Positions 34,633 through 51,646 of a stretch of 52,384 nt of DNA are shown here, in pieces. The first letter of the stretch is position 1; every line of letters starts with the position of its first letter. The stretch covers positions 1-52,384 of the IMG/VR virus record IMGVR_UViG_3300044998_000632; one strand, written 5' to 3'. The translations under genes were made by a program, and so were the position numbers. Below the pieces are notes generated by a model. The model saw only the letters and a program-made list of their open reading frames with translations, did no database searches and was not told where the DNA came from. The DNA comes from a virus. Taxonomy: Duplodnaviria > Caudoviricetes.

Positions 34633-36183
34633 CTAGCTCCTTGCGATGTCGGTGAACAGGCTCACCGCGGCCTCATGCACGTTGATGTTTCTACGTAGCG
34701 TGGAATATACCTTAGTTTCCGCCGCAGATCCAGTGAGGTGAATCACGGTGCATCGCTGGGTCTGTCCGATGCGATGGAAGCGGTCATTGGCCTGCTTGTA
34801 CATCTCGACTGACATCGTCGGGGACCACCAGACAGTGGTGTCCGCCCGAGTCAGCGTCAGGCCGTGTGCGGCCGCTTGCGGCTGCAGCACCAGGACTCGC
34901 AGATGGTCGGTCTGTTGAAACTGAAAGATCAGATTGCGTCGTTCGTGTGCGCTGACGTCCCCGTGGATGGCCATTGCAGGGACCCCCGCTGCGTTCAGCC
35001 GCGTAGTGAGGTCCTCGATGATGCCGCGAAAGAGCGCGAAGACCAGCACCTTCTCTGTCGTCTGCTCGATGATGTTGATCAACTCCGTGAACCGCGAGGT
35101 GTAATCCAGCGCGATGGGCTCCCGGTCGTTGGCGTAGACCACCCCGGAGCTGATCTGCAGCAGCTTGCCCAGCAACACGGCGGCGTTGGCCGCGGTGATC
35201 TCGCCACGCTCCGTGTCGAGCAGCATCTCTTTCTTGAGTCGTGTGTAGTGGTCGAGCTGTTCCTTGGACAGCGCCACGTGCCGGTCCAGGTAGACCCGCT
35301 CTGGTAGGTCGAGGCACTGCTCCTTGGTGAACCGGATCGACGGCTTGAGGATCTCGTTGACGCGCTGCGCAGCGTCGGCCTTGGGGGACCAGACAAACCG
35401 CGACTGCTGAACCATGACCGCGTCCCGCCACGTCGAAAAGTACTTCGGACACTGCGAGTTGCCCAGCAACCGCGACAGCCCGTACGCGTCCACGGGGGAC
35501 TGACTCGCCGGGGTGCCGGTGAGCAGCACCACGCGGGTCTCCGGCTTGATGAGCCGTACCAGCGCCTTGTATCGACGGATTGTGTGGTTCTTAAACGCGT
35601 TGGCCTCGTCGATCACGATCATGTCGAAGTCCGACGCGAGCAGTTTGTCGGTCTCGACATGCAACAGACCGTCGAAGTTCATCACGACGATCTCCGCGGG
35701 TGATTTCAGGACATCAAGCCGCCGAGGCAGAGTGCCGTGGGCGACGCCGACCTGCCGGTGTGGCGCCGCTACCGCAAAGTCGTTGACCCATGCGGAGTAC
35801 ATGACGCTGACGGGGCACAGCACCAGCACGCGTCGTACGCGCTTGCGCAGCAGAAGGTAGTCACATGCCGCGACCGCAGCGATGGTCTTCCCGGTACCCT
35901 GCTCGTTCCATACCCCGCAGCGCATGTGCGCGGTAATGAACTCCGCCGTGCGGACTTGATGTTGATAGGGCTGGATGTGCCACTTGTAGAAATGGCGAAA
36001 CGGCGTGGGCGGATCAAACCCGGCAAGTCCGAGGCGAACAGCGTTGTCCAGCGTCCAGTGGACGAGCAGCCCGTCGTCGGTGGGCTGGGTGTTGCTCAGC
36101 AATGGCGCAAGCTGGTCGTTCGTGCCTCCGCGGACCTTGATCGCCGCGTCGCCCACAATCTCGATGCGCGGATCGTGGTTCAT
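34633..36183 (-). CDS. SNF2-family helicase
   Basis: EQGTGKT, IVIDEA, LLTGTP, HGLTL and QANDRFHRIGQ. Confidence 0.9.
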   Translation of the reverse strand: MNHDPRIEIVGDAAIKVRGGTNDQLAPLLSNTQPTDDGLLVHWTLDNAVRLGLAGFDPPTPFRHFYKWHIQPYQHQVRTAEFITAHMRCGVWNEQGTGKTIAAVAACDYLLLRKRVRRVLVLCPVSVMYSAWVNDFAVAAPHRQVGVAHGTLPRRLDVLKSPAEIVVMNFDGLLHVETDKLLASDFDMIVIDEANAFKNHTIRRYKALVRLIKPETRVVLLTGTPASQSPVDAYGLSRLLGNSQCPKYFSTWRDAVMVQQSRFVWSPKADAAQRVNEILKPSIRFTKEQCLDLPERVYLDRHVALSKEQLDHYTRLKKEMLLDTERGEITAANAAVLLGKLLQISSGVVYANDREPIALDYTSRFTELINIIEQTTEKVLVFALFRGIIEDLTTRLNAAGVPAMAIHGDVSAHERRNLIFQFQQTDHLRVLVLQPQAAAHGLTLTRADTTVWWSPTMSVEMYKQANDRFHRIGQTQRCTVIHLTGSAAETKVYSTLRRNINVHEAAVSLFTDIARS

Positions 36184-41821: not shown

Positions 41822-42079
41822 CTATAAAACTACGAACGTCATCAGTAGCGCCAGGAACGACGCCACGGCGGCCAAGAAGGCCACTGCCGCCGCGGCCATC
41901 GCCATGTCGACGATGGTCCAAGTGCGTTCGAGCCGCGCTCGCTCGGCCGCAGTCAGTTGCGGCCGAGCCGGACAGACACGGCCCTGCAGGCAGTTGCCAT
42001 TGCACGGTGGGCACTGCAGGGTGTCCAGGTCGCCCGGTGCCGTCTCCATGGCATCAGGGCGGGTGTTGCGCCACGTCAT
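41822..42079 (-). CDS. Small Cys-rich membrane protein
   Basis: CPPCNGNCLQGRVCPAR plus a C-terminal TM segment. Confidence 0.55.
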   Translation of the reverse strand: MTWRNTRPDAMETAPGDLDTLQCPPCNGNCLQGRVCPARPQLTAAERARLERTWTIVDMAMAAAAVAFLAAVASFLALLMTFVVL

Positions 42080-42264
42080 AGCAACGCCTCCGCCCAAGCC
42101 CGACGCGCCTCGTCGGCGGCGCGCTTCAAGCGCTCGCGCTCAAGGCGCTCCAGCGCGCGGCGCTGCTCCTCAAGGCGCCGCATCTGCAGGTCGGTCAAGG
42201 TGCCGAACGGCCATCCGTCCGGGGTTGTGTCGTCGCGAATGCCGTTGGGGCTGTAGCCGGTCAT
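42076..42264 (-). CDS. Hypothetical protein
   Basis: WPFGTLT motif, coiled coil and ATGA coupling. Confidence 0.5.
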   Translation of the reverse strand: MTGYSPNGIRDDTTPDGWPFGTLTDLQMRRLEEQRRALERLERERLKRAADEARRAWAEALL

Positions 42265-42476
42265 ACGGCCTCCTTCCCCGCACGCTGCGACGCCACGGCG
42301 GCAGTCAGGCTGGCGATCAATCGCTCGGCCTGCTCGATCGACAGCATGGCCCGCAGGCCGCCGCCCTCGACGTCCAACGCGATCCACACCTGTCGGTGGC
42401 CTTCGTCCCGGTCGAGGGTGTAGACCAACACCGTCGGGCCGAACTGGGACTCGATTTTCGGGAAGTTGTTGAGCAA
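42261..42476 (-). CDS. Hypothetical protein (probable TTG start)
   Basis: RBS AAAGGAGAG just upstream of TTG at 42476. Confidence 0.45.
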   Translation of the reverse strand: MLNNFPKIESQFGPTVLVYTLDRDEGHRQVWIALDVEGGGLRAMLSIEQAERLIASLTAAVASQRAGKEAV

Positions 42477-42492
42477 GATGACTCTCCTTTGA

Positions 42493-42864
42493 TCAAACCG
42501 CCGGCACAAATCCGGCGTGACGGAATACGGCAATCTTCCGAACTGATCCGTCCGGCTGCGTCTGTTCCTCCGTCTCGCGGACGGAGAACGCAAACAGCGG
42601 TTCGACGCCTCGCTGCCGCAACGCAGCGGCAAGCGGTGCCATCAACCAAGGCGCTCCGCCGATCATCGCGCGCTTGATTCTTACGGCCGCCGCCACCTCC
42701 GCGATCTGCTCGGCGCGGTCGCGGATCGTCTCCGGGCTGGGGAGATCGAAGAACGTCAACAGCGTTTGCAGCTCGGCTTGAGCTTCATCGGACGGGTCAA
42801 TGACCCCCGCAGCCAGTTGTTCTGCGGTTGCGGCGTGTTGGGTGAGGTTGAGGATCCGAATCAT
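42493..42864 (-). CDS. Csx20-like CARF-related protein; candidate viral ring nuclease
   Basis: ILNLTQH-AT-EQ..GV-D..ELQ-L..AMIGG..G-EPLFAFS-R..E..DG..K..F-H-GF parallels the Csx20 motif order as recalled; no search was run. Confidence 0.6.
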   Translation of the reverse strand: MIRILNLTQHAATAEQLAAGVIDPSDEAQAELQTLLTFFDLPSPETIRDRAEQIAEVAAAVRIKRAMIGGAPWLMAPLAAALRQRGVEPLFAFSVRETEEQTQPDGSVRKIAVFRHAGFVPAV

Positions 42865-42898
42865 TCGTCGTTACTTTCTTCTCTCTTAGATTGAGGAA

Positions 42899-42925
42899 AT
42901 CACGGGGTCACCGTGACCCCGTGAT
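42899..42925. repeat. Palindrome copy 2
   Basis: ATCACGGGGTCAC-C-GTGACCCCGTGAT. Confidence 0.95.
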
Positions 42926-42928
42926 AGA

Positions 42929-43213
42929 TTACTTGGCCATGCGACGCTTGATGCTGTCCATCGTTCGGACAGCGTTGGCGATCCGCTCGTCGGGGATGCG
43001 CTTGCTCAAGCGAGTGAGCATGCGGTGGATGCTGAACGCGATGTCCTCCCAGCCCGAGAGCTGGGCTTCGTAGCGGAACTCCGCTTCGAGCTGCTCGCGT
43101 ATCAGCGCCTGCCGGTCCACGAGGAGCTGTGCAATGGCCGCCGCGGCTTCATGGGCCAGCGGGTCGTCTATGCGCAACAAGGTTGCGAGGACCCGGTCAG
43201 GATCGACCGACAT
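42929..43213 (-). CDS. Hypothetical helical protein
   Basis: ORF tiles after the stop at 43218; the start choice is uncertain. Confidence 0.5.
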   Translation of the reverse strand: MSVDPDRVLATLLRIDDPLAHEAAAAIAQLLVDRQALIREQLEAEFRYEAQLSGWEDIAFSIHRMLTRLSKRIPDERIANAVRTMDSIKRRMAK

Positions 43214-43217
43214 CGCA

Positions 43218-43472
43218 CTACTCGGATGGGTCAAGGGCAACCGATTGACGCCCGACAGCGCGGGCGGGAGCGGGTGCCTTGGGGGTTTCGGCGACTTGCT
43301 TGGCTTCTTGCGCGACATTGGCTCCTTCCTGATGATCTTCGTAGGGGTTGATGCCGAGCAGCCGGCAAACGTGCTCGCACGCGCCGCCGATCTCCCCGGT
43401 CGGGGGTACGTCGTCGCGGTCGAGCCCCAACGCGTTGCGAATGCCGTTGTACACGGCTTGCATCTTCTGCAT
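43218..43472 (-). CDS. Hypothetical protein
   Basis: TAATG coupling and RBS CAGGAG. Confidence 0.5.
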   Translation of the reverse strand: MQKMQAVYNGIRNALGLDRDDVPPTGEIGGACEHVCRLLGINPYEDHQEGANVAQEAKQVAETPKAPAPARAVGRQSVALDPSE

Positions 43473-43702
43473 TACGTTCTCCTGAACAGTCCAGCCAGCC
43501 AGTTGATGAACCGCGGCACCGCAGGCTGGCGATTGCGGCGCGGCAGGAGCAGCGCACGCTGCACCGCGTGTTCGTCTGCATCCATGGGGGCGCACCGCGC
43601 GGCGAACGTCCGATCGTCGTTGCGACGCTCGTACCACGCGGGTTCGAACCTACACCCGATGCGCACCGGCACCAAGGGCTTCACTTCTCCGTGAGCAGGC
43701 AT
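43472..43702 (-). CDS. Hypothetical protein
   Basis: RBS AAGGA; tiles with its neighbours. Confidence 0.5.
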   Translation of the reverse strand: MPAHGEVKPLVPVRIGCRFEPAWYERRNDDRTFAARCAPMDADEHAVQRALLLPRRNRQPAVPRFINWLAGLFRRT

Positions 43703-44016
43703 GGGGATTCCTTCAGCTCGTTGTCAATCTGATCGAGCAGTCGCCCGACCTCCGTGACCTTGGCCAGCCCGCACACGACCAAGGCGTCTCCCTTGGCTGC
43801 GCGGATGGCCGCGATCTCACGGTCCTGCAGCGCCGTCGTGGTGTTGCCTTCAGCCTTGCATTCGATGCCGATGAAGCGGCCGCGATAGCAGACGAGGAAA
43901 TCCGGCACCCCGCTACGACCGTATCCAGCGGTGGCCGGGTAGCAGTACCACGCATTGCGGGCTGTCAGCACGGCGGCTACAGCGTTCTTCACACGCCGTT
44001 CGGGAGTGATGCTCAT
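43681..44016 (-). CDS. VRR-NUC domain nuclease/resolvase
   Basis: TPE-RVK, GYGRSGVPDFL, FIGIECKA and TALQ. Confidence 0.85.
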   Translation of the reverse strand: MSITPERRVKNAVAAVLTARNAWYCYPATAGYGRSGVPDFLVCYRGRFIGIECKAEGNTTTALQDREIAAIRAAKGDALVVCGLAKVTEVGRLLDQIDNELKESPCLLTEK

Positions 44017-44603
44017 GCGGCCCTCCAGATGTAGAAGCCCGTACCCTGCGGCCCACGTTCGACATGTCGCTGGACGATCCGTGCGTCCGGACCGGCAACC
44101 TCCCGCAATGTCGCTTGCAACCCAGCGAGCCCGGTACCACTGACGCGAGGCTTTCCAACGAACACTGCGTCACCTACCTGCATGCATGCTGCAATCTCCC
44201 TCAACTGTTTGGAAAAGACGTTGCTGCGCGTGGCGGGCGGGATCGGGAAGTTCTTGATAAGCGTGAGGCTTGTCGGGCGGCCCTGCTTCGGCGGGGGTGT
44301 GGCCGGCACGTTGCTGGACTGCCGGCTCAACGCGGCTTCCTGCAACGTCTCGTTCGCGGCGTAGAAGTAGCCGTACCGGGTCGTAGTCCCCGGGATCCTG
44401 AGGTGTACTCGTCCGATCACTCCGCGCTGAAGCGCGGATTGCAGCACGACGTGCGGGTTGTAATTCGGCGGCAGGCTCAGCGCCTTCCACTCCGGCGAGG
44501 CCGCGATCTCCGACCACGGGATGGGCATTGAACGGTCCCGCCGCGACAGCACGGTCAGGATGGCGTTCTCGACGAGGGCGGCGGTGCGAATAGGTTGGTT
44601 CAT
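44013..44603 (-). CDS. Hypothetical, possibly DNA-binding protein
   Basis: IKNFPIPP..MQVGDAVFV..G-YIWR C-terminal domain; RBS GGAG. Confidence 0.55.
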   Translation of the reverse strand: MNQPIRTAALVENAILTVLSRRDRSMPIPWSEIAASPEWKALSLPPNYNPHVVLQSALQRGVIGRVHLRIPGTTTRYGYFYAANETLQEAALSRQSSNVPATPPPKQGRPTSLTLIKNFPIPPATRSNVFSKQLREIAACMQVGDAVFVGKPRVSGTGLAGLQATLREVAGPDARIVQRHVERGPQGTGFYIWRAA

Positions 44604-44622
44604 ATTGGCTGACTCCAGTAGG

Positions 44623-44964
44623 TCAGGGATTGGCGATATAGAACACGCGAGTTGCAACGATCCGGTCCGACGCGTCGCGTTCCGCGCTGGCTCCGTGCGA
44701 GACGATGACGTCGTCGCGGTGGATGTCGTGGGCCTGCATCGCCTCGGCAACGACAGGGTCTACGAGGTACAGCGTGTTCGCCTCCGGTGGAGGGAGTTCC
44801 GGACGGGCGTAATCCCGCTTGGCAATGGTGGCGTCTCCGATGAACTTGCCCGTGGGAGCAAGTTGTCGGTCACCGATAAGCCGCCACCCAGAAGGGCGGA
44901 TCGTCTCCAACTTCTCGCCATTGCGAAAGGCAATGGTGATGCCGGTTAGATTGATGATGTTCAT
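44623..44964 (-). CDS. Crn4/Unk01-like protein lacking the NLTPH histidine
   Basis: IINLT..I..I-PSG...Y..LPPP..NTLYLV..VA-A..R-D..V....RD...I pattern as recalled for this family; reads NLTGI instead of NLTPH. Confidence 0.5.
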   Translation of the reverse strand: MNIINLTGITIAFRNGEKLETIRPSGWRLIGDRQLAPTGKFIGDATIAKRDYARPELPPPEANTLYLVDPVVAEAMQAHDIHRDDVIVSHGASAERDASDRIVATRVFYIANP

Positions 44965-44965
44965 G

Positions 44966-45985
44966 TCAGTGTGCTTTCATGATGTTGCGAAGTTCCTGGA
45001 CCTCGGCGCTACCAGTTTCCTCGTCCGCGCCGTCGAGCGGGTCCTGCGCATTGTCGGCGCTGAGCGTATACCATTCGAGCAGGTCATCGAAGTCGCACAT
45101 GCCGGCTTCCAGGTACTCAATCGTCGCCGTCAACTCCACGAGTGCCTCGTCCGCAGACAGGTGTAACACCGGCAAGATGTCGAGCAATTCTTCCTCGGTG
45201 GCGTAGACCTGCAAGAAGCGACGCGCGGACGCATCCCCGTGCCGGCTGTAGTCCTCCACGAGGTCGAACAACTCCACGAGCTTCGCTGCCAGCTCCGTGT
45301 GGGCGCGGAACGAGTCACCCACGGCGTCGACGTCGGTCACGACGTTTTTCTTAGGCGGCGTCCATGACGGGAAGCCGGGTTCGTCGCTCCAATCGTGGAA
45401 GCTCATCCGACCCGAGCCGTACACACCCCACAGATGCGGAGTCCATGCGTAGGTGTTGCTGAACCAGCAACCGGGGAACATATCCGTCGTGACGCCAGCG
45501 CTCTCGTTGACCAACAGCAAGCCGTGCTCGGCGTGGATGAAGATGAAACGGTTCTGGCGGCCGATGTGTTCGCCGATCATCTGCCGGACCAACGGCTCAT
45601 GCACCACCGGTGCGACCGCCACTCCGTAGGTGCGGGCGTAGATCTGTGTGTCGGACTCCTTGGTGGTGTCGCCGCCAATCGACAGCACGCCGTTGTGCAT
45701 GAGGTAGAGCTTGCCGTCGTGAATGGCGTAGGGATGCACGCGCTCCAGGTCGACCGCGCCGTGCGTGCGCATGCGCCAGTGCAGTGCGTACTCGACCCCC
45801 CGCGGAGCGTGCTCCAGCCACCACAGACGGGCGGCGGCCGCATCGGCCGGCAGCGTCTTCTCGACGATGATCGTGCCGTCCTTCACGTAAGCGATGCCGA
45901 GACCGTCGGGGTTTTTGCGGAAGCAGTCCTCGAACCAGTCGGCAGGAAAGACGGTATCGGGGGCGACTTTGACGAGCAAACACAT
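44966..45985 (-). CDS. Class-II (Ntn) glutamine amidotransferase, copy 2
   Basis: Cys2 (MCLLV), NPDGLG, HWRMRTHG, VHPY, MHNGVL, SDT and WFSN. Confidence 0.85.
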   Translation of the reverse strand: MCLLVKVAPDTVFPADWFEDCFRKNPDGLGIAYVKDGTIIVEKTLPADAAAARLWWLEHAPRGVEYALHWRMRTHGAVDLERVHPYAIHDGKLYLMHNGVLSIGGDTTKESDTQIYARTYGVAVAPVVHEPLVRQMIGEHIGRQNRFIFIHAEHGLLLVNESAGVTTDMFPGCWFSNTYAWTPHLWGVYGSGRMSFHDWSDEPGFPSWTPPKKNVVTDVDAVGDSFRAHTELAAKLVELFDLVEDYSRHGDASARRFLQVYATEEELLDILPVLHLSADEALVELTATIEYLEAGMCDFDDLLEWYTLSADNAQDPLDGADEETGSAEVQELRNIMKAH

Positions 45986-46009
45986 GATCGATTCTCCTTC
46001 TTGGTTGAG

Positions 46010-47509
46010 TCAGTTGCAGAATTGGAACTCGCGCCGAGCGTTGTAGGCGAGTTTGGCGAGGTCGGGAACTACTGGTACGAGTCGCGACTGCACGGGGCGC
46101 GCAGTCAACAGCCGCCGCAGTGCGGCCGTGCAAGTGCGGTCCATGTCCATGACGTGCGAGACGAACTGCGACATCGTGGGCTCGGACAGCAGTACGTCGG
46201 TGGAGCGGACGCGGAAGAAATCCACCAGCGCATGAATGAACTGGAACTGAGCCAGTGCCCCGATGAACCGCGGCTGCGCGATGGGGCGGCGCCACTCATA
46301 AGTGGCGGCGCCTCGCTCCAGCCGCGAAAGGTTGACTTCATAGTACCGGGTCAGGTTCGACGTGAGGCTGCCGAGACCCGCGCGCCTGACCAGCTCCCCC
46401 CACGGAAGCGAGAACTGTGGCGGCATCTTGTGGCAGTAGCGGGTGTTGGGACGCCCTGCCACAACGGCGTGTACCTCGGTATTACGAGCAAGGAACGCGG
46501 CCAGCAACGCGGCATACATCAGGTCCGGGATGCGACCGTACTCGCCGATGTGAACGTGCATGCCGGCACGGCGCGACCTTCGCCATGCGATTCGCGGCGC
46601 GTACACCCGACGCATGGCGTCCACCACGTCCTCGTATGCACCGAAGCCGGTGACGACCTCGAATCCTTCATTGATGGACCCATCGCGCTCGATATTGATC
46701 TTCTCCTTCGCGTTCATCTTCACCCAGGTGAGCGCCACGTCCCGGGACAGTGCTCGCGATGGCAGAAGCTCCAACTCGACGCCGAACGTAGGCCCCTTGT
46801 AGTTGGGGTCGCGCAGCCCCACGAGATCGCAATAGCCGGACCGTTGGGTTGAATGGTACTCGTTGCACCGCAGGGTGTTGAGCATCCAAGTCACCCTATC
46901 AGGCGCTCGCGGGAAGTGGGAGATCGCGAGCGGGTCCAGGTCACGCACCGTGACGCACTCGCCATCGGATGACACCATAACTGCAGTCGCGCCGCCTGCC
47001 TGCCTGCGAATCCACTGGCGCTTTTGGCCCGGCATTTCTATGGGCACGAACTCCTTCAACATGCATCGCACACACTTGGCGTGCCTCACGCCGCTCGTGT
47101 CGCAGTGCAAATGTCCGTCGGCGTACTCCAGATGTCCGCACGCGGCACGGGAGTAGGAGCGGCTGAACACGTGGTACGCGGCGCCGGAAAACGCCATGAT
47201 GTCGTCCTCGGACGCCGCGGAGGAGTCCAGCCGCGGCCGCGTCAAAAGCGCTGCCACGGATTCAATATCCGGCATTCCGGGCCGTGAGAGCCGAACCAGA
47301 TGTGCCCGCATCGCCGCGGTGTACGCCCGTACGTTGCGCAGCTTACGGAGCTCGCTGAACGACCGGTAGGTGCCGTCGCGGCTCGTGCGCTCATTGGCGC
47401 GCATCTGCTGTCGAATGCACTCCCGGGCCAACCCCACGCCACCGACGGCGAACGTGTGCATCAGAGGCGTCCGGGGATGCCGGCTCGGAGAACTGTAGTT
47501 GAATGGCAT
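46010..47509 (-). CDS. Putative amidoligase (COOH-NH2 ligase, GS/GCS2-like fold), copy 2
   Basis: EYHS, FGVELE, ERDGSI..GFEVVT, AGMHVHI, RYYEVN and TYEWR. Confidence 0.8.
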   Translation of the reverse strand: MPFNYSSPSRHPRTPLMHTFAVGGVGLARECIRQQMRANERTSRDGTYRSFSELRKLRNVRAYTAAMRAHLVRLSRPGMPDIESVAALLTRPRLDSSAASEDDIMAFSGAAYHVFSRSYSRAACGHLEYADGHLHCDTSGVRHAKCVRCMLKEFVPIEMPGQKRQWIRRQAGGATAVMVSSDGECVTVRDLDPLAISHFPRAPDRVTWMLNTLRCNEYHSTQRSGYCDLVGLRDPNYKGPTFGVELELLPSRALSRDVALTWVKMNAKEKINIERDGSINEGFEVVTGFGAYEDVVDAMRRVYAPRIAWRRSRRAGMHVHIGEYGRIPDLMYAALLAAFLARNTEVHAVVAGRPNTRYCHKMPPQFSLPWGELVRRAGLGSLTSNLTRYYEVNLSRLERGAATYEWRRPIAQPRFIGALAQFQFIHALVDFFRVRSTDVLLSEPTMSQFVSHVMDMDRTCTAALRRLLTARPVQSRLVPVVPDLAKLAYNARREFQFCN

Positions 47510-47535
47510 AGGTTGCTCCTTGTAGGTTCAATTGA

Positions 47536-48723
47536 TCAAACACCGGCCGGGGTGTCGGCCACGAGGCACAGATCATGCACCCGCTTCTCTGCGGCCTCCA
47601 GTTCACTTGCGAGCGCGACTGCGCTCGTGAACATGTTCCACTTGCGCTGAACACCGCACAGGGCTTCGTGGAAATCCAGGATCGCTTTCTTGCGCTTGTC
47701 CGTCGTCATGCTCTGAAGGCTGTCGGTGAAGGCGATCACATCCTGCGGTAACGCGCCACTCCACCCCACTGTGGCCAGCAGCAACGTGGACACCGTCCAC
47801 AGATGAGATGGTGCGGTCGTCATCGGCAGCAACTCGACATGGCGCATCAGTGTCTTGACCGCAGAGGCCAGGTCGGCAGGCAGGTGACTCGCCCAGGTGT
47901 AGTTGCGCGGGATGTAGATCATCTCCTTTCCGGTAAGCCCGCGAAACTCCAAGATGCGCAGATCACCGAACTGCGAAGAGTGCGAAAGCTCCCCGAAGGG
48001 CGCAGTCGAAGGCGCAGTCGAAGGCGCAGTCGAAGGCGCAGTCGAAGGCGCAGTCGAAGGCGCAGTCGAAGGCGCAGTCGAAGGCGCAGTCGAAGGCGCA
48101 GTCGGACGCGGGAATGACGTGTATCCCCACGTCGGCCGCGCAAACTCGGGCAGCGAAGGCCACAACGTGTGGTCGGTCACCGCGTAGTTGTTGGACAGCA
48201 GCATGCCGTCGCACTCGAACCAATCCTTGCGGTTGAGCACGTGGAAATGCTTGCGCCCGGCATCGAGGAGCAGGATGCGGTTCTCGCCGATCGCCCGCTC
48301 GATGAACTTGATGACCCCGCTGCACTCCAGCGCATCGGGGCGCATCTGGTCGAGCAAGTCGGCCAGCAGGCGCGTATCACTGGAACCGCGCCTGAGGTCG
48401 GCATCCACCAGCCGGGACGGCAAGGTTCCGTTGTGCATCATGGCGAATCGCGTGCCGAACGCGAAGGGATGCACATTGGCGAGGCTGCGCGACCCCCTCG
48501 TCACGCGGCGGAAGTGCAGCGCATAGGGCGTGTCGCTGGGCCGCCACCGCTCGATGAACTTCACCACGTTGGAGGGCTTCGTCGCCAGCGTGCGAGCCGT
48601 CACCGGCGTGCCGTCGTCGCTGGCAAACATGATCCCCGTGCCGTCGGGGTTGTACTTCATGGCGTCGGTGATCTGCTCTGGAGTGAGCCTCCTGCCGGCG
48701 GGGATGTGGATGATCAAGCACAT
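47536..48723 (-). CDS. Class-II (Ntn) glutamine amidotransferase, copy 1
   Basis: MCLII, NPDGTG, HFRRVTRG, NVHPF, MHNG, SDT and LSN. Confidence 0.85.
   Translation of the reverse strand: MCLIIHIPAGRRLTPEQITDAMKYNPDGTGIMFASDDGTPVTARTLATKPSNVVKFIERWRPSDTPYALHFRRVTRGSRSLANVHPFAFGTRFAMMHNGTLPSRLVDADLRRGSSDTRLLADLLDQMRPDALECSGVIKFIERAIGENRILLLDAGRKHFHVLNRKDWFECDGMLLSNNYAVTDHTLWPSLPEFARPTWGYTSFPRPTAPSTAPSTAPSTAPSTAPSTAPSTAPSTAPSTAPFGELSHSSQFGDLRILEFRGLTGKEMIYIPRNYTWASHLPADLASAVKTLMRHVELLPMTTAPSHLWTVSTLLLATVGWSGALPQDVIAFTDSLQSMTTDKRKKAILDFHEALCGVQRKWNMFTSAVALASELEAAEKRVHDLCLVADTPAGV
47999..48104. repeat. 12-bp perfect tandem repeat (GGCGCAGTCGAA, ~9 units) encoding (TAPS)n
   Basis: Seen directly in the sequence. 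Confidence 0.95.
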
Positions 48724-48765
48724 GTTCACTTTCCTTTCGTTGGTGAGTTGGTTGATGGAACGGTT

Positions 48766-48790
48766 TCACGGGGTCACGGTGACCCCGTGA
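48766..48790. repeat. Palindrome copy 3
   Basis: TCACGGGGTCAC-G-GTGACCCCGTGA. Confidence 0.95.
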
Positions 48791-48793
48791 CTG

Positions 48794-50452
48794 CTACGCC
48801 CTGGCATACGCCTGCTGGGCTTGCGCCTTGCGCATCTCGGCATTGCGCAACTCACGCAGGCGGGGGGCGAACGCCAGCGACTCGGGATGGTCGACGATGT
48901 AGTGTCGCAGCGTCTTCGTGTTGCGCCGCAGGTACGGATCATCAACCAGCGCGTTAGCGAACCCGCTCGCCGTGAGCGGGTTGCACGCGACGGGGTCGCA
49001 ATACTTGGTCAGCGCCCACACCAGTTCAAGTCGCGCCTTGATGCGCCGCGACCGTCCCGTGCCGGCGAAGATGCGCCACTCGATCGACCCATCACGGCGG
49101 ACATTGATCGCGTTGTAGCGATCGACCGGGCTGCCGAACTGCCGCTTCCAGGCGTCCTTGAGCACCTTGCGCGCCGCGTGCCCGCACAGCGGGTTGCGTG
49201 CATACGAGTTGAACCCGCGGCCGAACAGCGGGCGCAGGAAGGGATAGTTCTCCCCGGCGCAGACGGCTCCGAAGAGCCGCTCAATGTGCGCCTCAGGCAG
49301 GCTGCTCGTGCTGATGTGCAACCCGCAATGGTCGGTGTTGTATCTGTAGTCCCGGACGATGCCGCCGAGCCTGTCCGCCCAGTTACGCACCGTGCCAAGC
49401 GTGGACCACCCGGTGATGATCTCTACTCCGTTGTGCTCGTCCAGCGAGGCGTCCTGTTCGAGTACGACGACCGAAGACAAGTCGTCCGAGTCCATGACAT
49501 CGTCCACGAACGAACTGCGCCCCTCGACGTTGAGTTCGCACTCGAAACCGAGGGTGAGCGTATCCACTTGCAGCGGGTCGTCGTAGTGCGACGCGTGACG
49601 CCGGACGGCCAGTTGCCGCTGACGGCTCCCGCTGTGGTACTCGTACAACTGCGGGTGCCCCGTGCCGTCCTCGTCCTCGTCTCCGTCCTCGTCTCCGTCC
49701 TCGTCTCCGTCGGGGTAGATGTCTTCGAGGGAGTCGAGGGCGGGGTCGAAGTAGCTGTCCGAGCGGACGTCGTACCGCAGCGCGTTCATCGCGAACTCTC
49801 GCGACGCGATCGTGGTGCCGTAGAACTCGATCGTGCGCTCCCCGATCAACGAACTCACCTGCCACACGGACTGGCTCTGCCACCGCGTGACGGGAAGCCC
49901 GCCGATGCAGCCCACTGCGACGAGACACGCGCCGTACTTCGGGATCACCCGGAGTTCGACCTCGCACGTCACGTACTTGTCCCCGAACGCAGCGAGCAGG
50001 CGAGAGCCCAGGCAGGACTGGGGAGTGATGAACCGCGTCTTCAGGAGGTGGTTCACTGCCGGCTGGCATTCCGACAGGTCGAGATCGAATCGGTTGCTCC
50101 CCGCCCAACGACCGATGTCCCGGAACTCCCGCCGGTAGCCGATCGGCCGCGTCCGGGCAGGGGTGTTGACCGTGTCGGTCGCGATGTCGCGGCCGACTGC
50201 GAGCATGTTGCTCGCGAAGTTCACGACGCGGCCGACTGCGAGCATGTTGCTCGCGAAGTTCACGACGCGGCACATGCGGTCGAAACTTTTCCAGTCGCCA
50301 TCCAGCGTGACGACGTACGGTGCGGCGGTCTCGACCACCCGGACGGTGGGGTCGCGGCGCACGAGCACCGCCGCGGCCTGATGGAAGTAGTTGAGCACGC
50401 GAGCGTGCAGCCACGAGCACACGCCCGAGTTGAAGTTGAAAGTGATACGCAT
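48794..50452 (-). CDS. Putative amidoligase, copy 1
   Basis: EYHS, LGFECE, EQDASL..GVEIIT, CGLHIS, RYNAIN and SIEWRIF. A (GGAAA)n purine tract precedes ATG 50452. Confidence 0.8.
   Translation of the reverse strand: MRITFNFNSGVCSWLHARVLNYFHQAAAVLVRRDPTVRVVETAAPYVVTLDGDWKSFDRMCRVVNFASNMLAVGRVVNFASNMLAVGRDIATDTVNTPARTRPIGYRREFRDIGRWAGSNRFDLDLSECQPAVNHLLKTRFITPQSCLGSRLLAAFGDKYVTCEVELRVIPKYGACLVAVGCIGGLPVTRWQSQSVWQVSSLIGERTIEFYGTTIASREFAMNALRYDVRSDSYFDPALDSLEDIYPDGDEDGDEDGDEDEDGTGHPQLYEYHSGSRQRQLAVRRHASHYDDPLQVDTLTLGFECELNVEGRSSFVDDVMDSDDLSSVVVLEQDASLDEHNGVEIITGWSTLGTVRNWADRLGGIVRDYRYNTDHCGLHISTSSLPEAHIERLFGAVCAGENYPFLRPLFGRGFNSYARNPLCGHAARKVLKDAWKRQFGSPVDRYNAINVRRDGSIEWRIFAGTGRSRRIKARLELVWALTKYCDPVACNPLTASGFANALVDDPYLRRNTKTLRHYIVDHPESLAFAPRLRELRNAEMRKAQAQQAYARA
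50188..50270. repeat. Exact 39-bp in-frame tandem duplication (RVVNFASNMLAVG x2)
   Basis: Seen directly in the sequence. Confidence 0.95.
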
Positions 50453-50493
50453 GATTCTTCCTTTCCTTTCCTTTCCTTGGTTGGAACCGCGTG

Positions 50494-50518
50494 TCACGGG
50501 GTCACGGTGACCCCGTGA
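50494..50518. repeat. Palindrome copy 4
   Basis: TCACGGGGTCAC-G-GTGACCCCGTGA; supplies the TGA stop of ORF 50502-50714. Confidence 0.95.
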
Positions 50519-50714
50519 TCATGGCGAGGAACGCCGGGAACGCACGCTCGGCGACGAGCGCGAGCGTGAAGACGACGGCGACGGCGATTGCGAGCGCCAG
50601 CATGACCCACTCCGCCGGGTGCTCGTTGCCACCAGTTTCCGCGCCCTCCAGGTGCGAGTACACCTCGCACGCGCCGGGATCGCCGGCGAAGTTGGGGTCA
50701 GCGTGCTCGTCCAT
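50502..50714 (-). CDS. Small membrane protein
   Basis: RBS GGAGG/CAGGA and a C-terminal hydrophobic segment. Confidence 0.5.
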   Translation of the reverse strand: MDEHADPNFAGDPGACEVYSHLEGAETGGNEHPAEWVMLALAIAVAVVFTLALVAERAFPAFLAMITGSP

Positions 50715-51617: not shown

Positions 51618-51646
51618 ATTATATCGTATATACCCCCCCTTGTCAA
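51618..51646 (-). promoter_or_regulatory. Consensus sigma70 early promoter
   Basis: TTGACA (51646-51641), 17-bp spacer, TATAAT (51623-51618). Confidence 0.9.

Follow-up and report, generated by a model that had tools for sequence, protein, structure and literature searches.

What would a phage gain from a ring-nuclease fold whose catalytic histidine has been replaced? The question is raised by a small gene in the window analysed here, all 52,384 bases of a viral record (IMG/VR record IMGVR_UViG_3300044998_000632; Duplodnaviria, Caudoviricetes). The gene, which we call P0001, lies at 44623..44964 on the minus strand and encodes a protein of 113 residues followed by a TGA stop codon. Its product is a homologue of the ring nuclease Crn4, formerly Unk01, which was described as a new cyclic-nucleotide recognition fold (Chi et al., Nat Commun 2025; PMC12830947). 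However, it carries the motif NLTGI where Crn4 has NLTPH. Because two functional signatures, the His of this motif and a Ser, both fail, we describe P0001 as a member of a His-less variant clade of the Crn4/Unk01 superfamily rather than classing it among the Crn4 ring nucleases. The reading that we prefer, at a probability of roughly 0.4, is that P0001 would be an early-expressed anti-defence protein that neutralizes a signal of the cyclic oligoadenylate (cOA) type other than by the canonical cleavage that depends on the His, most likely as a sponge.

The reading frame itself is well marked. The GC contents of its three codon positions (0.64/0.45/0.73) follow a coding pattern, and its database homologues (n = 5) are 58–78% identical to P0001. 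An open reading frame on the + strand, 44521-44949, was also considered as the gene and was rejected, as its third-position GC content is lower and the homologues back the minus frame. The codons at 44938..44952 (minus strand) translate as N5-L6-T7-G8-I9 and not as NLTPH, exactly as the initial annotation of this DNA had read them; this is the loop that holds the catalytic His in Crn4, and in it the Thr is retained while the His has become Ile. The same annotation had placed the start 1 bp past the second of two glutamine amidotransferase (GATase) genes. Indeed, the ATG of P0001 occupies 44962-44964 and the TGA of the upstream GATase-like gene 44966-44968, so that the junction TGA-C-ATG (44965..44968, minus strand) has a spacer of exactly 1 nt. 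As this spacer is accompanied by no clear Shine–Dalgarno sequence before P0001, translational coupling to the upstream gene is likely.

The assignment to Crn4/Unk01 had been proposed from sequence motifs, and the profile and structure searches that were suggested as a check bear it out. P0001 matched the PADLOC profile PDLC01138 (Unk_01) with an E-value of 3.9e-7, residues 1–110 of the protein covering positions 1–100 of the 103 in the profile. No match was obtained in Pfam or NCBIfam, nor by phmmer against the PDB sequences, and the match to PHROGs was weak (phrog_21731, E 9.5e-4, profile positions 96-203). A profile of six close clade sequences (A1), searched over 1.84 billion representatives, retrieved 108 proteins at E <= 1e-3, most of about 110 residues. 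The six clade members were then aligned with 71 of the 107 non-self matches (A2), leaving aside 6 long repetitive, 19 longer or fused and 11 short or partial proteins; the seven of these that were inspected were all canonical NLTPH forms. Pfam, run on 52 of these 107 proteins, identified no real family, and Unk_01 was matched by 76 of the 77 aligned proteins. The consensus of the 71 relatives reads NLTPH..PSG..LPxP..YIVS..RxD..PDT..VRD..G.I, and the motif string given in the initial annotation (NLTPH..PSG..LP-P..YIVS..R-D..RD..I) matches this computed consensus. In a profile–profile comparison with hhalign, the clade aligned with the 71 relatives at a probability of 99.8% (E 2.5e-28), and the relatives alone matched the solved structures of Crn4b (PDB entry 9r7b; E 1.6e-19), Crn4a (9sma; 8.5e-14) and the H15A variant of Crn4a (9qs9; 3e-12). 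The record type is also one in which the family belongs (a type III CRISPR locus, a phage or a plasmid), the window being viral.

The predicted structure leads to the same family, whose β-rich fold has one short helix and no relatives in the PDB outside Crn4. The AlphaFold2 model of P0001 has a mean predicted local distance difference test (pLDDT) score of 97.0, and all seven of its Foldseek matches at E <= 0.001 are Crn4 chains, the next match standing at E 0.41; the template modelling (TM) score to 9r7b is 0.67. With VIA, the Z-scores to Crn4a and Crn4b chains were 11.1 (root-mean-square deviation 2.8, 106 aligned residues), 10.9 and 10.3; of the 513 chains compared, just seven had Z >= 2. 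Moreover, P0001 is predicted to form a homodimer, with an ipSAE (interaction prediction score from aligned errors) of 0.81 compared with 0.00 for the best control, at least 97% of the contacts agreeing between runs and the partner having a pLDDT of at least 92; among proteins of solved structure, 20 of 30 pairs attained the score mark used, compared with 1 of 23 single chains. In the predicted interface, hairpin residues 42-50 of one subunit pack against residues 13-16 and 104-110 of the partner, as in the arm-swapped dimer of Crn4, although the prediction may in part reflect likeness to the solved Crn4 dimers. Crn4b and Crn4a thus share with P0001 the fold, the size of about 113 residues and the arm-swapped homodimer (predicted for P0001). 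Homology is supported by the profile, the profile–profile alignment, the fold and the predicted dimer together.

What, then, has become of the active site? We mapped residues from Crn4a to P0001 through hidden Markov model alignments and counted the columns in the 6 clade proteins and the 71 others. P0001 and Crn4 have in common the N-L-T, P-S-G, L-P, Y-x-V, R-x-D and R-D motifs, as well as the active-site Thr and the phosphate-binding Arg. T13 of Crn4a corresponds to T7, a Thr in 6/6 clade proteins and in 70/71 others, and R112 of Crn4a (R103 of Crn4b), which aligns with the Arg of the V-R-D motif, corresponds to R96 and is retained in 6/6. By contrast, H15 of Crn4a (H17 of Crn4b, H481 of TSR1), a His in 67/71 of the other relatives, is replaced by I9, an Ile in 6/6 clade proteins and also in a seventh copy on a metagenome contig. 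The loss of the signature His, which had been read from the single sequence, is therefore conserved, as shown by the homologue alignment that was to decide this point. S91 (Ser in 66/71 others) has become D69, an Asp in 6/6, and its neighbour R92 has become P70 (codons 44755..44760, minus strand); E16 has become T10. The Crn4 paper reports S91, R92, E16 and R112 as contacts of cyclic hexa-adenylate (cA6) in Crn4a, gives T13, H15 and R112 as conserved in all members, and shows that H15A and R112A each abolish cleavage (PMC12830947).

The replacements go well beyond the His. The strand Arg of the family (R36 in Crn4a) is a hydrophobic residue in the clade, and an invariant pair specific to the clade, W27-R28 (44881..44886, minus strand), follows immediately on the P-S-G motif of the family. 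The segment that precedes the phosphate-binding Arg, P-D-T-G..A-V in the family (P-D-T-G in most relatives, P-D in Crn4a and P-L in Crn4b), is S-H-G-A-S-A-E in the clade. H90, D69 and E95 are invariant (6/6), whereas the family consensus at these positions is D/N, S and V/I, respectively. The longest two stretches of invariant residues in the clade, INLTGI (residues 4-9) and VSHGASAER (residues 88-96; codons 44677..44703, minus strand), the latter ending at the retained Arg, are the two active-site loops of Crn4, and a run of at least nine invariant columns has a permutation p of 0.0085. Invariant columns number 44 of 113 in all, among sequences that are 58-78% identical, and they are concentrated in both active-site loops. 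As judged from this alignment, with its exchange of Ser for Asp, loss of the strand Arg and new S-H-G-A-S-A-E loop, more than the His is changed, so that `repurposed' is at least as apt a word as `dead', the two possibilities that had been raised for this gene.

The clade is small and constrained. It comprises six clusters at 90% identity among 5.8 billion proteins, together with the seventh copy, which lies on a 1.5-kb metagenome contig (L001) and differs by one residue from clade protein P0005; L001 was the sole clade locus in the metagenome contigs searched. Apart from the record of the window itself, IMG/VR yielded no further members, and neither did 185,579 species genomes; tblastn with P0001 and megablast with the region 42000-50600 likewise gave no match in 50,697 phage records. 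The frame is intact in all clade copies. Between P0001 and the L001 copy, the ratio of nonsynonymous to synonymous substitution rates (dN/dS) is 0.29, with a dS of 1.17 that is near saturation; the sequence is thus under purifying selection, and P0001 is better conserved between the two loci (59% identity) than its GATase neighbour (44%). In a quick maximum-likelihood tree the clade is monophyletic, with a support of 98 in the Shimodaira–Hasegawa-like approximate likelihood ratio test (SH-aLRT), and it combines short internal branches with a stem of 0.89, the longest inner branch shown. Its sister, P0069 (119 residues, SH-aLRT 95), has N-L-T-D-E, I-V-D and A-E-H-D: the His is absent and the Arg has become His, but the Asp and the Ala-Glu are shared with the clade. 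A search with P0069 found no viral locus for it. Four other scattered relatives also lack the His, none of them with the replacement set of the clade. Taken with the invariant active-site loops and the dN/dS, monophyly on a long stem indicates a site that was rebuilt and not one that decayed: the alignment and the tree record a phase of rapid change, after which the sequence was strongly constrained.

Under the sponge reading, P0001 would be a homodimer of the Crn4 fold with a rebuilt nucleotide pocket at the dimer interface, and a cOA-type immune signal would be captured between the two subunits. With I9 in place of the general-acid His, the canonical cleavage would be lost; with R96 retained, phosphate binding would be kept, and the signal would be sequestered rather than cut. 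Binding without canonical cleavage is suggested because the sole known activity of the fold is the binding of cOA at this interface, because variants without the His bind their ligand uncut, and because the Arg is kept. Indeed, the H15A variant of Crn4a is reported not to cleave and yet to hold cA6 in the crystal (PMC12830947), and the H481A variant of TSR1 is reported not to cleave and still to bind cyclic tri-adenylate (cA3) in native mass spectrometry (10.64898/2026.09.16.751991). Like P0001, both lack the general-acid His, and they provide a precedent for binding without turnover; however, both were engineered by a single substitution and their pocket is otherwise canonical, whereas the natural clade shows about nine concerted replacements. 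The phage sponges Acb2, Tad1 and Tad2, and the candidate Csx15, follow the same proposed logic of a small oligomeric viral protein that sequesters an immune nucleotide, with folds unrelated to that of P0001 (sponges of cyclic nucleotides in phages are discussed in PMC13577387, and Csx15 is put forward as a candidate sponge in 10.1101/2024.09.24.614671). The Crn4/Unk01 papers searched and read describe neither a His-less clade nor a sponge with the Crn4 fold, although the supplementary alignments of the Crn4 paper might show one.

That such a sponge would serve anti-defence is suggested by the early-type operon in which the gene lies and by an adjoining Csx20-like gene (42493..42864, minus strand; 123 residues, with an invariant NLTQH motif), which is the first ring-nuclease-like gene implied by the initial annotation. 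Its product matches the NCBIfam Csx20 profile at E 4.8e-6 (27 bits, compared with a cutoff of 70) and the PADLOC Csx20 profile at E 2.4e-6, over the C-terminal ~40 residues. In its own family, which has 1700 database matches and the tag PF27247, the PADLOC profile is matched by 40 of 40 members, at best with E 8.9e-11. Its model (pLDDT 95) is Rossmann-like, and in Foldseek and VIA searches CARF/SAVED chains score Z ~5 among unrelated chains of up to Z 7.2, with no clear best. Csx20, which is CARF-like, is reported as a confirmed ring nuclease of cyclic tetra-adenylate (10.1101/2024.09.24.614671); the neighbour is collinear with it, of similar length and with matching profiles, while the fold of P0001 differs from that of Csx20. 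The initial annotation had spoken of two unrelated cOA-handling folds within 2.5 kb. Their proximity is as stated, the Csx20-like gene lying 1.8 kb downstream of P0001 and both genes fitting within 2.47 kb, but the cOA-handling part holds less firmly, the resemblance of the second gene to Csx20 being sub-threshold for the protein itself and consistent across its family. An N-terminal β1-N-L-T-x-H element is found both in canonical Crn4 (NLTPH, β-rich) and in the Csx20-like family (NLTQH, Rossmann-like). Judging from these motifs, it could be a convergence on the same catalytic loop or a shared ancestral element.

Several observations weigh against the sponge reading. In the alignment, two acidic residues, D69 and E95, now adjoin the Arg that binds phosphate, which may make the site less favourable to a polyanionic cOA, and the new invariant H90, with the Asp/Glu and the Arg, looks like a catalytic set, which would favour a nuclease; the placement of H90, D69 and E95 relative to the pocket is that given by the alignment and the interface list alone. 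The clade profile by itself reaches Crn4b in the PDB at only E 0.58, so that the sequence link to the solved Crn4 structures is transitive, although the direct Unk_01 match and the fold do not depend on this link. In none of 80 canonical viral Crn4 loci from IMG/VR (L005-L084) are there genes related to the GATase, amidoligase, Csx20-like or other neighbours of P0001 (0/80), and an `anti-cOA island' is therefore not a recurrent pattern. A GATase-like gene precedes the clade gene in both loci with visible context (2/2, the window and L001), which could point to another role. The reading further presupposes a host that signals with cOA.

We may wonder at this stage whether P0001 is still a nuclease, with a relocated centre in which H90 would serve as general acid, R96 would stabilize the phosphate and the 2'-OH would be activated by D69 or E95 as general base, or in which His, Asp and Glu would form a metal site. 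In that case the mechanism of this ring nuclease or phosphodiesterase would be different, as perhaps would its substrate range. The proposed H90/D69/E95/R96 set resembles the Glu/His/Arg sets of metal-independent cyclizing RNases such as RNase T1. All three new residues, invariant and unlike the family consensus, lie in or beside segments of the Crn4 active site, H90 and S93 fall inside the predicted dimer interface, where Crn4 has its ligand cavity, and an invariant loop of nine residues would seem to exceed the need of a binder that had merely lost its His; the sister P0069, too, has the Asp and the Ala-Glu, with a His in place of the Arg. Yet catalytic residues migrate more rarely than activities are lost. 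In active Crn4b the equivalent of H90 is a Leu and the loop is three residues shorter, so that the position has no known catalytic role, and the H15A and H481A variants are reported to be fully dead although their other residues remain. We consider such a rewired nuclease rather unlikely. A decaying Crn4 remnant without function would agree with the loss of the catalytic His, with the rarity of the clade and with the absence of copies in IMG/VR outside the window's record and in the species genomes, but it would hardly have kept its frame intact in all copies, a dN/dS of 0.29, 44 of 113 invariant columns placed in active-site loops, a model with pLDDT 97 and a better conservation than the GATase next to it. 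We rejected the pseudogene reading on the dN/dS and the invariant loops, and regard a remnant as highly improbable.

The other possibility to be weighed is that the Crn4 fold has been put to a new use, with a ligand or partner other than a cOA immune signal and a role tied to the GATase and amidoligase genes, for example through substrate or product binding or through regulation. The clade gene starts 1 nt past the GATase-like gene in the window and 3 nt past its homologue on L001, despite an identity of 44% between the two GATases (BLASTP); as 0/80 canonical (NLTPH) loci share this linkage, it is specific to the His-less clade, and the pocket residues have changed as a set. On the other hand, two loci from related phages may share their gene order by descent, and the adjacency says little because the operon also contains replication and nuclease genes. 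The phosphate-binding Arg is retained, the Csx20-like gene of the same operon points to cOA, and we found no longer, fused form of the clade protein, which is weak evidence. Moreover, the only ligands reported for the fold are cyclic oligoadenylates and, weakly, short polyA RNA (PMC12830947). A role outside cOA signalling thus appears doubtful to us, and the sponge remains our preferred reading. A bolder idea, which we hold with reserve, would take the centre formed by H90, D69, E95, R96, W27 and R28 as newly built on the Crn4 fold, for other chemistry on immune nucleotides or for the recognition of a signal that canonical Crn4 cannot recognize, maybe as a counter-defence module, of a kind not seen before in phages, with the co-translated amidotransferase and amidoligase.

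The operon itself runs on the minus strand in the order: a 567-residue protein, a GATase-like protein, an Amidoligase_2-like protein, the second GATase-like protein, P0001, a 196-residue protein, a VRR-NUC-type endonuclease (phrog_93), small open reading frames and the Csx20-like gene. All of the genes located here are on the minus strand. The 567-residue gene (48794..50497) matches phrog_16683 (E 9.8e-6) and has no Pfam match; motifs judged by eye suggest that it could be amidoligase-like, with no library match in support. The first GATase-like gene (47536..48729) matches GATase_4 (E 1e-5, 25.1 bits for a cutoff of 23). Its listed GTG start gives V-N-M-C, while Met-Cys is the terminus expected of an N-terminal nucleophile (Ntn)-type amidotransferase and is found in the 339-residue paralogue; the start is probably the ATG at 48723, which would give a Met-Cys N-terminus. 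Between the N-terminal domain and the C-terminal part of this protein lies a tandem (A/T)-P-S-T-A-P-S-T... repeat of about nine copies of a five-residue unit (window 47900-48120). The Amidoligase_2-like gene (46010..47509, 499 residues) has no Pfam match; in the ESM Atlas, PF12224 is assigned to 28 of its 30 nearest clusters (score 0.94), with a structural match over residues 207-490. The GATase-like gene directly upstream of P0001 (44966..45985, 339 residues) is of class II (Ntn, Met-Cys start), with GATase_6 at E 0.0056, under the cutoff, and phrog_25883 at E 1.9e-7. On the other side, the 196-residue gene (44013..44603) starts 19 nt past the P0001 stop, with a GGAG 9 nt before its ATG; structural rows of the Atlas hint at an N-terminal PadR-like winged helix, all of them below the bar for naming a family.

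A sigma-70 consensus TTGACA-17-TATAAT (51618..51646, minus strand; 12/12 matches) lies upstream of the whole leftward run. From its sequence it is likely to be a strong early promoter for the host RNA polymerase and is a candidate for driving this operon, although the total of promoter-like sites in the region is no higher than in shuffled sequences; terminator-like sites in the run are likewise no more frequent than in shuffles. Co-expression of P0001 with the ligase cluster had been anticipated, and its tight coupling to the GATase and amidoligase genes is consistent with it. Pairs of amidoligase and GATase resembling the window cluster (44966-50497) seem to be described in work on LUZ24-like and OM43 phages, and tblastn gave matches to the MEP401/402 phages. 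A GATase-based search found no related viral loci. A role of the amidoligase cluster in thymidine hypermodification was considered; the scan of the early genes brought up no gene resembling a thymidylate synthase. Elsewhere in the window, an SNF2-family helicase (34633-36183, minus strand; Pfam SNF2-rel_dom, E 7e-22, and also the PADLOC ZorD and DpdE helicase models) is part of a replication module with a DUF927 primase-helicase-like protein, a PD-(D/E)XK nuclease and a family A DNA polymerase. The phage DNA polymerase shares no more than 35% identity with its counterparts from Rhizobium and Pseudomonas phages.

Canonical Crn4, for its part, is not restricted to the type III CRISPR loci beside which it is found: like P0001, which lies in a phage operon and not beside a type III CRISPR locus, Crn4b is phage-borne. 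We found canonical homologues in 11 phage records, and the Crn4 paper reports the gene in 11 of 28,137 cultured phage genomes (PMC12830947). In IMG/VR, the single pattern I-N-L-T-P-H-x-[IV]-x-[ILV] alone matched 350 stretches, 284 of which were confirmed as canonical Crn4, which makes it far commoner in uncultivated viral contigs than among cultured phages. KLER1-1 gp50 and P1312_051 are canonical phage examples without neighbours of the window type. In the latter (L003), from Thermobifida phage P1312, the Crn4 domain lies within a protein of 329 residues with N- and C-terminal extensions, the layout also seen in phrog_21731. In P0009 (238 residues) the whole Crn4 domain is tandemly duplicated, with N-L-T-P-H in both copies, and from this sequence it would form a single-chain pseudo-dimer.

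The window thus holds one phage operon with two ring-nuclease-like genes of different predicted folds, and the clade to which P0001 belongs breaks the stated universality of T13, H15 and R112 in a conserved and selected way. Two questions can be put to it as a natural experiment: whether other residues can form the core of a rebuilt active site in the Crn4 fold, and whether this fold can serve as a sponge, in which case viral signal sponges would gain a new structural class.

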